Shown here: positions 44,208 to 45,739 of the stretch, in pieces
Layout: each line of letters starts with the position of its first letter
How positions within the stretch are numbered: position 1 is the stretch's first letter
Source of the DNA: a bacterium
GTDB lineage: Bacteria > Patescibacteriota > Minisyncoccia > Moranbacterales > UBA2206
DNA length: 55,417 nt
Reading direction: 5' to 3'
Assembly (NCBI GenBank): GCA_021788105.1
Contig: JAJYKZ010000003.1
Coordinates: 1 to 55,417, forward strand
Notes under the pieces: generated by a model
The model's database searches: none
What the model was told of the DNA's origin: nothing
The model's input: the letters and a program-made list of their open reading frames with translations, nothing else
Translations under genes and position numbers: made by a program

Positions 44208-44241
44208 TAATCAAAAATGTGCAATCGCACAAATCTGATTA
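44208..44241. repeat. 34 bp palindromic site, copy 1
   Basis: TAATCA-aaaa-TGTGC-AATC-GCACA-aatc-TGATTA. Confidence 0.9.
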
Positions 44242-44331
44242 CATAAAAAAATAAAATATAAATAAACATCCGAGAAAGAAAAAACCATTCTGATTTTTTA
44301 GGGCGGTTTTTTTCTTGTGCATAACTCTTCC

Positions 44332-44362
44332 TTGTCAAGATGCGTTGGGGGGGGGGTATTAT
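44332..44362 (+). promoter_or_regulatory. Promoter with a G10 homopolymer in the spacer (possible phase variation)
   Basis: TTGTCA 44332-44337, 19 nt spacer including G x10 (44347-44356), TATTAT 44357-44362. Confidence 0.65.
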
Positions 44363-44385
44363 GGAATTAAAGAAAAAAACTTTTT

Positions 44386-44715
44386 ATGTCTAAAAAAACA
44401 AAGATCATAATCATTTCTATTGTAAGCGTAATTGTTATCATAGCCGTCGTTTGGGCGATCATTGACGCGAACAAAAGTAAGAAAGCCAACACTTCTCCAA
44501 CTGTCAATACTTCAGAAAACCAAACTCCAAAACCAACACCTTTATCGCAGGAAGAAATCAACCAAGCTCTCAACAAGAAAGCCTCTGCTACCGCTTCTCA
44601 AACTGCCATTAAAGAAAGCGACATTAACACCGCCTTGGCTCAAAAAGCCGTCGCTCCGGCTAAACCATTATCAACCCAAGAAATCCAAACTGCGCTTACC
44701 AAAAAAATTCAATAA
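44386..44715 (+). CDS. Small membrane-anchored protein with three amphipathic repeats
   Basis: N-terminal TM; LSQEEINQALNKK / IKESDINTALAQK / LSTQEIQTALTKK. Confidence 0.8.
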   Translation: MSKKTKIIIISIVSVIVIIAVVWAIIDANKSKKANTSPTVNTSENQTPKPTPLSQEEINQALNKKASATASQTAIKESDINTALAQKAVAPAKPLSTQEIQTALTKKIQ

Positions 44716-44735
44716 ATTAATTTTCAAATATAAAT

Positions 44736-45542
44736 ATGAAAACCAAACTTAAAAAACTATTCTCAACAAAAGTTGCCTATTGGACGGGGATCATAATCTT
44801 CGGAGCGATCCTGGGAGTTTCACTTCAACTTGCGAGAGCAGGGTGGCAGGAACCGGCGCCCGGAACAGTTCCTCCCACCGGCGGCAATGTCGCTGCGCCG
44901 ATAAATACTTCTGACAATAGCCAGTTAAAATTGGGAAATCTTTCTTTAAATTCTTCGGGGACTTGGTCTACTGGATTACTGGTGCCCAACGGCACTGTTA
45001 GTATAGGCACAGCAATTCCTGATAATAATTACAAGCTCGATGTTTATGGTGATGCCATAGTACGTGGTTATGACAGTGGTACTTCCAAAAATGAAGGATT
45101 GCAGCTAACCATGAATGGCATGGAATCATATAATTTAGATAATCCTTCCTTGGCTTCTCCACTGTATTTGAACCCTTCTGGTCAGAACGGAGATCTTGCG
45201 CCAAGCGGAAGCCAAGTAATCATAGGGGATGACTGGGGGAAAGGCTCGCACGATCTTAGGATAGCTAATGGTAACTTAGTATTGACTGCCGGCAATACTG
45301 GAATTAAATTTCCAGACAATACTGTGCAGAAGACGGCATTAACTTTTGCGGGAACATGCTATGCAGGCTATTTTACACCAACATGTACATGCGGAAACGG
45401 GACAATACTTATGTTTATTACTGGCGAATCTTTCACAAATAGTAATGGCGGATATGACGGTTGTGAAGTTGATAATCAAAATTCATTAAACGTAGAGGGG
45501 AGGACAAATGGCGCTTTTTGTACGTTCAGCTGTTTTAATTGA
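44736..45542 (+). CDS. Exported fibre/adhesin-like protein with Cys-rich C-terminal tip
   Basis: Signal/TM; WQEPAPGTVPP..GNVAAPIN; GTVSIGT..P..YKLDVYG and GIKFPDNTVQKTA fibre-type motifs; six Cys in the last ~60 aa. Confidence 0.7.
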   Translation: MKTKLKKLFSTKVAYWTGIIIFGAILGVSLQLARAGWQEPAPGTVPPTGGNVAAPINTSDNSQLKLGNLSLNSSGTWSTGLLVPNGTVSIGTAIPDNNYKLDVYGDAIVRGYDSGTSKNEGLQLTMNGMESYNLDNPSLASPLYLNPSGQNGDLAPSGSQVIIGDDWGKGSHDLRIANGNLVLTAGNTGIKFPDNTVQKTALTFAGTCYAGYFTPTCTCGNGTILMFITGESFTNSNGGYDGCEVDNQNSLNVEGRTNGAFCTFSCFN

Positions 45543-45705
45543 AAATTTCTTTTAAGTTTCACCAAGATCCGGTTTTGGCCTAGTTTGTATGTTACATTTA
45601 ATTTGCAGTTTGCTGAAATCTTTGGTTAAATACCAGAGAAAGTAGGCAAGCTGCTTTTTTGCAGTCAGTTCGCTGCTAATAAGAAATTAAATAAAAAAGA
45701 GGGCG

Positions 45706-45739
45706 TAATCAACTTTGTGCAATCGCACAAATCTGATTA
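45706..45739. repeat. 34 bp palindromic site, copy 2 (direct orientation)
   Basis: TAATCA-actt-TGTGC-AATC-GCACA-aatc-TGATTA; last 24 nt identical to copy 1. Confidence 0.9.

Follow-up and report, generated by a model that had tools for sequence, protein, structure and literature searches.

Paired 34-bp palindromes around a surface-protein operon of a Patescibacteria genome as putative binding sites of a small PaaX-like protein encoded in trans

Introduction

Pairs of operators which loop DNA or flank an immunity region are known from several bacterial and phage systems, such as lac O1/O2/O3, gal OE/OI and lambda OL-OR around cI-rex. BrxR and CapW, in turn, are winged helix-turn-helix (wHTH) regulators of defence islands. 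To our knowledge, very little has been reported on gene regulation in the ultra-small Patescibacteria (candidate phyla radiation, CPR). PaaX from Escherichia coli has been shown to bind TGATTC-N27-GAATCA and to repress its own promoter sterically, by blocking RNA polymerase (PMC9493321).

Here, we describe a 55,417-nucleotide stretch of DNA from a member of the Moranbacterales (contig JAJYKZ010000003.1 of assembly GCA_021788105.1, hereafter the window), in which two 34-bp palindromes bracket an operon for two predicted surface proteins. A first-pass annotation, made from the letters of the window, had favored loxP/FRT-type recombination sites and had kept protein-binding sites as an alternative. 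The analysis reported below points to the latter: the palindromes are probably operators of a 206-aa protein, called here mini-PaaX, which is encoded on another contig of the same genome. A literature search returned no paper linking PaaX with Patescibacteria or CPR. In what follows, genomes, contigs and loci are designated by G, C and L numbers, respectively, the window being contig C40 of genome G000 (0.92 Mb, 40 contigs).

Two sites in the window and three around a distant gene

Both palindromes have the form TAATCA-N4-TGTGCAATCGCACA-N4-TGATTA, are read on the + strand and lie 1498 nt apart, start to start:

44208..44241, strand not assigned: site 1, TAATCA-AAAA-TGTGC-AATC-GCACA-AATC-TGATTA, found by sequence search
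45706..45739, strand not assigned: site 2, the same palindrome with the left spacer ACTT, found by sequence search

The two copies are identical at 31 of 34 positions, and all three mismatches fall within the left N4 spacer. The 24-nt right part, which has the same letters in both copies, matches the window twice with up to three mismatches (0.00 expected, 100 shuffles), and TGTGC-N4-GCACA occurs only these two times in the whole window. The sequence around the copies is unrelated, and the repeat is thus limited to the 34-mer. Site 1 is located 81 nt past the gdhA stop codon and ~90 nt 5' of the -35 element of the predicted operon promoter, and site 2 is located 163 nt past the stop codon of the gene for a 268-aa protein and 32 nt (45740-45771) ahead of the dciA ATG (45772). 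The coordinates, identity and direct orientation given in the first-pass annotation were correct, as was its remark that the window holds no other copy.

A scan of the whole genome revealed exactly five copies, which is not the picture of a many-copy dispersed repeat. The three copies outside the window are all on contig C14, at 200-233 (+), 907-940 (-) and 981-1014 (+), where they bracket the gene for the 206-aa protein (G000:C14:253-873, minus strand). The downstream site lies 19 nt past its stop codon. The proximal upstream site lies 33 nt before its ATG, with nearly the same spacing (32 nt in the window) and orientation as site 2 ahead of dciA. After another 74 nt comes the third site, within the divergent region that the gene has in common with tilS-ftsH. 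This layout, with two sites upstream and one past the stop codon, is that of an autoregulated repressor. Among the five copies, only TAATCA, TGTGCAATCGCACA and TGATTA are invariant, the N4 spacers being different.

Upstream of tilS, the same-genus genome G001 has a TrmB-like regulator gene (L237, G001:C41), versus the bracketed PaaX-like gene in G000:C14:1-1091. TrmB-like genes are also frequent neighbors of bracketed units in relatives.

Co-distribution and helix-arm covariation in relatives

A degenerate form of the site was searched for in 71 genomes of the family, in which close orthologs of mini-PaaX were defined by an E-value below 1e-60. The site was found in 14 genomes, with 1-5 copies in each (reversed-pattern control: 0), a close ortholog in 15, and both together in 11 (Fisher p = 1.6e-7). 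All motif-positive genera contain a close ortholog (7/7, p about 1e-4). The site-gene-site layout recurs in at least seven genera of the Moranbacteria family, as well as in metagenome contigs. One or two sites upstream and one just past the stop codon are present in G000, G009, G035, G067, G033, G034, G030, G072, G076, L109 and L125, and upstream sites of a PaaX-like gene are also carried by the metagenome contigs L116 and L122. The end of the site is 9-33 nt before the regulator ATG in G000, G072, G033, L116, L122 and L125, and 57-76 nt before it in G035, G009 and G067. A scan of genome contigs with the exact architecture returned only an already known relative.

In the loci examined around the sites, 54 placements were tallied, corresponding to 46 distinct site sequences. 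Positions 4-6, 11, 13-15, 20-22, 24 and 29-31 are invariant or almost so across these 46, with variable, A/T-rich spacers. The arms change together with the putative recognition helix of the adjoining protein: TAATCA pairs with ..NNLKQRK, TAGTCA with ..YNLKK[KR] and TCTCA with [RK]NL[RH]HRK. A mosaic protein from G030 has a Cas2-like C-terminal half 93-95% identical to that of same-genus proteins of the TAATCA type (A-type), but the helix of the TCTCA type (B-type); its two upstream sites are of the TCTCA type and the downstream one is still of the TAATCA type. Because of copy number, co-occurrence, gene linkage and helix-arm covariation, we consider both palindromes of the window as probable binding sites of the mini-PaaX encoded in trans on C14. 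The protein-binding alternative of the first-pass annotation is thereby supported by the five copies, the gene linkage on C14 and the helix-arm covariation, although in an unusual bracketing form.

An alternative is that the palindromes act as RNA or single-stranded DNA hairpins at transcript ends, in processing, stability or termination, with or without the Cas2-like protein. The two window sites fold at -9.9 and -15.2 kcal/mol (z about -5), and the perfect palindrome of relatives at -17.7 kcal/mol; many sites lie -3 to 40 nt past stop codons and between convergent genes, and the Cas2 and VapD relatives of the protein include RNases. However, a U-tract is missing, and intrinsic terminators of the canonical GC-rich kind are present in these genomes. 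The spacers are non-complementary in G000, and often so across the 46 distinct sites. Positions 12 and 23 (R12/Y23) pair as would independent half-sites (G/C 18, A/T 9, G/T 7, A/C 11), and mismatches of both types are seen on the sense strand of the adjoining gene. Furthermore, the arms change as expected of a symmetric DNA site, in step with the wHTH recognition helix. The independent variation of positions 12 and 23, together with the lack of complementarity between the spacers, favors protein read-out over a stem; a duplex DNA site recognized by a symmetric protein fits best, and a hairpin function is unlikely. A scan of the sites against Rfam gave only sub-threshold chance matches.

The mini-PaaX protein

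The 206-aa protein matches the Pfam family PaaX_M (PF20803) with E = 1.2e-20. The NCBIfam model for PaaX (TIGR02277) aligns with residues 64-184 at 29.4 bits, against a cut-off of 264.55 bits, and the equivalog level is thus not reached. No PaaX_C domain was found, the chain ending after the Cas2-like domain. A first structure model based on 5 sequences was poor, and a second one based on 51 homologs was confident only in the Cas2-like half, residues 120-206, which adopt a beta-alpha-beta-beta-alpha-beta Cas2-like fold in the model. With low confidence, a helix at residues 66-78 is followed by a beta-hairpin wing, which would correspond to the recognition unit of a winged helix. The best fold matches were Cas2 and VapD, and E. 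coli PaaX (8a39) was aligned over 150 columns; a profile search against PDB sequences gave no significant match. In total, 449 homologs were found, variously named hypothetical, PaaX, VapD or Cas2 and labelled Candidatus Moranbacteria or Patescibacteria. D130 of the Cas2-like 'FDIP' motif is invariant in the 51 sequences. Residues 31-52 (FLLAGLAAAPILVTAAIAPNVF) are conserved and hydrophobic, with a hand-calculated Kyte-Doolittle mean of ~1.9, and may form a membrane helix. In the mini-PaaX family, this segment comes after a conserved F.Y.DS.PATA motif.

Paralogs in G000 are accompanied by private palindromes of their own, at C1:7622-7653 and 8281-8312 and at C6:25978-26013. These share the same 6-N4-TTGC-N4-GCAA-N4-6 build with other arms, namely CTATAT...ATATAG on C1 and TGTAAA...TTTACA on C6, and the C1 paralog gene is bracketed on both sides. 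A 40-bp perfect palindrome, TTAAGACAAAAATTATGCTACAGCATAAAAATTGTCTTAA, occurs twice in identical form (G000:C12:22197-22236 and G000:C37:6550-6589). The C12 copy is 75 nt from a C1-type site. No PaaX-like gene adjoins the palindrome.

The inserted segment and the gdhA-dciA slot

In the window, the two sites belong to a segment inserted between gdhA and dciA:

42876..44126, + strand: gdhA (Glu/Leu/Phe/Val dehydrogenase), left neighbor of the inserted segment
44127..45771, strand not assigned: lineage-specific segment with both sites, the promoter and two genes, from comparison with G001
44316..44362, + strand: predicted promoter module with DnaA-box-like TGTGCATAA, -35 TTGTCA, G10 in a 19-nt spacer and -10 TATTAT
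44386..44715, + strand: gene for a protein of 109 aa, membrane-anchored at its N-terminus and containing three short repeats, without a family match
44736..45542, + strand: gene for a 268-aa protein, N-terminally anchored, Cys-rich, 'fibre-like'
45772..46059, + strand: dciA (PF05258, E = 1.2e-12)

The promoter and the two surface-protein genes that the first-pass annotation had placed between the sites correspond to the predicted promoter module and to the 109-aa and 268-aa proteins, both with N-terminal membrane anchors; for the 268-aa protein, no match was found in Pfam, PHROG or PADLOC. The dciA start is backed by alignment with relatives. This gene was found in 68 of the 71 family genomes, and a site ahead of it only in G000 among the genomes screened.

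In G001, the gdhA-dciA gap of ~75 nt consists of a canonical terminator and a TTGACT-17-TATTAT promoter, with neither palindrome nor cassette. The two genomes are close to each other at the protein level, with 94% identity for gdhA (79 C-terminal residues on the G001 contig), 85% for dciA and 82% for PBP1. Window positions 44127-45771 are therefore a lineage-specific segment, with one breakpoint 82 nt to the left of site 1 and the other 33 nt to the right of site 2. The terminator which follows gdhA in G001 is lost in this genome. Neither the motif nor the PaaX-like gene was found in G001, a genome only 84% complete. The proposal of a swappable slot is supported by the relatives, the place before dciA being occupied by nothing in G001, by a wHTH-phosphoribosyltransferase (PRTase) gene in G008 and by the fibre operon here; trxB adjoins dciA in G034 and G003. 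The G008 gene (L100 4423-5403, G008:C4), the stop codon of which is 5 nt ahead of the dciA ATG, is a homologue of cassette 1 of the G072 array described below. Another palindrome, TGGGGGTTAATATTAACCGGTTAATAGTAACCCCA, lies upstream of it, and no site of the mini-PaaX palindrome family was found in this G008 slot. An exact-protein look-up of dciA for other gene contexts found nothing.

The inserted segment looks as if it had been assembled from local parts, since the promoter module (C10, C6) and the start of the 268-aa gene (C31) have paralogs elsewhere in the genome. The promoter module is present at window 44316-44362, G000:C10:27020-27062 and G000:C6:35882-35952 (minus strand), each time with the order TGTG[CG]ATAA, TTG[TC]CA, G9-10, TATTAT and ahead of a gene for a secreted or anchored protein. 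The G tract is G10 in the window and G9 in the C10 and C6 copies, the latter of which carries a perfect DnaA box, TGTGGATAA. Together, the three look like a family of phase-variable promoters. Window positions 44702-44908 are 92% identical over 208 bp of DNA to G000:C31:12347-12552, a stretch which includes ~34 nt of upstream sequence and ~58 codons from the start of the 268-aa gene, and the first 77 aa of the two proteins are 83% identical. The C31 paralog belongs to a cluster of four anchored-protein genes. In the family of the 268-aa protein, the N-terminal module AGW.EPAPGTVPPTGGNVAAPINTS is conserved and the C-termini vary, and G001 has two further copies.

The comparison with G001 bears directly on the first reading, in which the palindromes are loxP/FRT-type sites and a tyrosine recombinase, for example Xer of the host, would excise a 1498-bp circle by recombining the two direct copies. 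The two copies are direct, their central region is identical, the 13+8+13 parse is formally possible and the cargo is missing in the sister species G001. In addition, G000 contains one full Xer-like tyrosine recombinase gene (C14 ~5.0-6.0 kb), ~4.5 kb from the C14 site cluster, besides one fragment. However, conservation across the 46 distinct sites follows blocks of 6-4-5-4-5-4-6, and the supposed 8-bp spacer includes near-invariant GC..GC. The core is symmetric in most relatives (ATAT or AATT); AATC is one transition from AATT, and its orientation is not kept, with AATC/GATT in opposite directions at orthologous sites of G033 and G034. The empty G001 allele retains no site instead of one, with breakpoints outside the sites. 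A homolog of the C14 Xer-like gene was not found in the relatives' stretches around the sites that were checked for it; the sites co-vary with the wHTH protein, not with a recombinase, and the C14 copies, which surround an intact gene, do not all point the same way. Given the symmetry and flip of the core, the site-free empty allele, the unlinked recombinase and the tracking of the DNA-binding protein by the sites, excision by Xer or a related enzyme is unsupported and very improbable.

The position of the segment had also evoked origin-proximal segregation or replication sites, parS-like or related to DnaA. A location near oriC is plausible, because dnaA is ~5 kb upstream (~38.5 kb of the window), and site 2 lies ahead of dciA. 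Nevertheless, the parS variant finds no support: three of the five copies are on another contig beside tilS-ftsH, the sites of relatives are by cca and PaaX-like genes, and none is before dciA in the other genomes screened. The palindrome, moreover, resembles neither the parS consensus nor a DnaA box. Such a function is, in our view, extremely improbable.

Three further classes of elements were rejected. A dispersed REP (repetitive extragenic palindromic) or MITE (miniature inverted-repeat transposable element) family does not agree with 5 copies in G000 and 1-3 in its relatives. Regarding integron attC sites, there is no adjoining integrase, the cassette has its own promoter and the site sequence is kept across genera. 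An intrinsic terminator is at odds with an AT-rich stem with internal loops and no T-run after it. In summary, lox/FRT/dif, attC, REP, parS and terminator were set aside because defining features of each, when tested, were absent from these sites.

Bracketed units at other loci

In G007 and four metagenome contigs, two sites 1.0-1.3 kb apart surround an operon made up of a DUF4325 gene and an unknown gene beside cca. At the cca locus of G072, an array reads, in order, double site, wHTH-PRTase gene (PsyrT-like), double site, HEPN and MNT genes, hybrid site and cca, so that n cassettes are accompanied by n+1 sites. A gene for a large serine recombinase is located ~2.5 kb from this array (L140 (G072:C43) 273-1835 and 4305-6712). 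Within the same genus, the cca locus has no site in G071, G075 and G076, and a double site alone in G070. Elsewhere, the sequence common to G009 and G035, two genomes of one genus, is restricted to an 830-bp block extending from one site to another, the flanks being unrelated. A search of G035 for an empty site matching the G009 unit, and the reciprocal search, found none, synteny breaking at rplA in both.

Among the 54 placements, 15 are between convergent gene ends, 4 between divergent starts and 23 between tandem genes; only 2 are inside a called open reading frame, at one orthologous position in two genomes. A site copy, TAATCAAATCTGTGCATATGCAAAAATCTGATTA, is found inside a gene for a ~500-aa membrane protein in three species of one genus (L009 1501-1534, i.e. 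G030:C1:22219-22252, and also G073 and G076).

These observations bring in another explanation, in which the palindromes are cassette ends or attachment sites and mini-PaaX, or a host enzyme directed by it, moves palindrome-bounded segments; the autonomous form would then be the PaaX-like unit, with the fibre operon as a passenger cassette. The three allelic states at cca in one genus (no site, double site, and site-cassette-site-cassette-site) are in line with such a process, as are the G072 double sites, 97% identical to each other over 73 bp, the hybrid sites, in which the left arm is of the B-type and the right arm of the A-type, and the 830-bp block of G009 and G035. The cargo (HEPN-MNT, PsyrT-like PRTase) is typical of mobile accessory DNA, and the AATC core common to the five G000 sites and the invariant D130 of 'FDIP' can be added. 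In contrast, all three presence/absence comparisons place the breakpoints beyond the outermost sites, by 33-126 nt, and show an empty allele free of sites. The distances are 82 and 33 nt when the window is compared with G001, 78 nt when C14 is, and 51 and 126 nt between G072 and G071/G075. Moreover, sites adjoining cca hold orthologous positions across genera, the precision of the G009/G035 block is limited by the divergence of neutral flanks and no simple empty site was found. A scan of viral contigs with the core pattern gave 82 matches; these were treated as chance, with no phage link, since none has the palindromic arms or AT-rich spacers typical of these sites or a nearby PaaX-like gene, and no phage contig carries the element. 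We also know of no catalytic activity for PaaX_M domains. Movement from palindrome to palindrome is thus doubtful, albeit worth keeping in view.

On a broader level, mini-PaaX proteins and their private palindromes might form an undescribed cassette-organizing system of Patescibacteria, which would mark both ends of a unit, silence or insulate it and promote site-directed gain, loss and shuffling, the fibre operon being a passenger held in trans by the C14 protein. We regard this as a rather improbable, tentative extension.

Proposed mechanism

Returning to the operator function, sequence, copy number, distribution, gene linkage, helix-arm covariation and presence/absence polymorphism are direct observations, from which we infer binding, repression and looping or insulation by mini-PaaX. 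The C14-encoded protein would bind its own three sites as a symmetric oligomer, leading to autoregulation, and would also bind site 1 and site 2 of the window. The four conserved blocks of the site are centered ~9.5 bp apart, that is, in four successive major grooves on one helix face, which suggests a dimer of dimers; symmetric dimers or such a dimer of dimers, spread over the four grooves, would occupy both window sites. Because neither site overlaps the operon promoter, the pair most likely acts cooperatively, possibly through a 1.5-kb repression loop closing off the operon. Alternatively, the bound proteins could be roadblocks, which would shield the inserted operon, itself probably phase-variable, against read-through from gdhA and would separate it from dciA. 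Mini-PaaX may control dciA too, as a side effect of the insertion, since site 2 lies where the dciA promoter must be. A promoter scan detected no signal above background close to site 1 or site 2, and the candidates read by hand around site 2 are weak and were not relied on.

Several points weigh against an operator function. Simple promoter occlusion does not account for the pair, site 1 being ~90 nt upstream of the -35 element and site 2 past the operon, and the orientation and spacing of the half-sites are unlike those of the E. coli PaaX box. The 54 placements are unlike those of ordinary promoter operators and fit elements marking unit ends, in view of 15 convergent versus 4 divergent placements. 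All five G000 copies have the core AATC, with its one-base asymmetry, which hints that the sites were copied and did not arise independently. As for the protein, its N-terminal 60 residues are poorly modelled (low AlphaFold confidence), and the hydrophobic residues 31-52, if a membrane helix, complicate a plain repressor model. Such a membrane anchor would tether the bound DNA to the membrane.

The window would be a clear case of sites acting in trans around non-regulator cargo, by essential origin-region genes and with a sister allele that lacks everything.

Significance and comparison with known systems

As judged from sequence, a large and mis-annotated protein family (hypothetical, PaaX, VapD, Cas2) putatively acts through long private palindromes. 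These stand on both sides of the gene for the regulator itself and, in trans, of newly acquired operons for surface proteins or conflict systems. If it works as a loop or an insulator, this bracketing would offer a genome with few regulators a simple quarantine of foreign or variable cassettes by essential genes, here dciA and dnaA. The helix-to-arm code across paralogs (N/K/Q, Y/K/K, R/H/H) provides a directly testable specificity rule. The weaker possibility of a Cas2-fold protein helping to move cassettes would, if true, be of wide interest.

Similarly to loxP/FRT/dif and attC, the mini-PaaX sites are palindromic, ~30-34 bp long and flank a cassette as direct copies, with n+1 sites for n cassettes. 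They differ from these in having no conserved asymmetric spacer, linked integrase or single-site empty allele, in the breakpoints outside the sites, in cassettes with their own promoters and in the conservation across genera of sequence and not just structure. REP/REPIN-RAYT systems likewise tie a palindromic repeat to one protein gene that it flanks; mini-PaaX sites, in contrast, number 1-5 copies per genome and go with a wHTH/Cas2-like protein, with no RAYT-type (HUH) protein.

With the lac, gal and lambda systems, the mini-PaaX sites share identical copies hundreds to thousands of bp apart which bracket a regulated or regulator gene. Here, unlike in these systems, each pair has one member past the 3' end of the operon, in many cases between convergent genes, and looping is a proposal. 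The resemblance to BrxR/CapW lies in a small wHTH protein, palindromic sites and accessory or conflict cassettes (HEPN-MNT and PRTase in relatives), whereas the partner fold is Cas2-like and not WYL, and the sites bracket units and not promoters only.

The closest counterpart is PaaX itself (E. coli, Pseudomonas; 8a39, 3l09; TIGR02277; PF20803), in which, as in mini-PaaX, a winged helix precedes a Cas2-like dimerization domain. For both, the site is long and of two-fold symmetry, its outer hexamers being similar to TGATT[CA] (TGATTA/TAATCA for mini-PaaX), and both have a site upstream of their own gene, a position indicating autorepression (PMC9493321). Mini-PaaX departs from PaaX in its short chain of 206 aa without the PaaX_C ligand domain, in having no link to phenylacetate genes and in its conserved hydrophobic N-terminal segment. 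Its site has half-sites in the opposite orientation, N22 spacing and an extra conserved inner pair, TGTGC/GCACA, and further sites lie past the stop codon and around unrelated cargo, a bracketing layout not described for PaaX. Collectively, these comparisons suggest a PaaX-type repressor/operator system in an undescribed, bracketing form.

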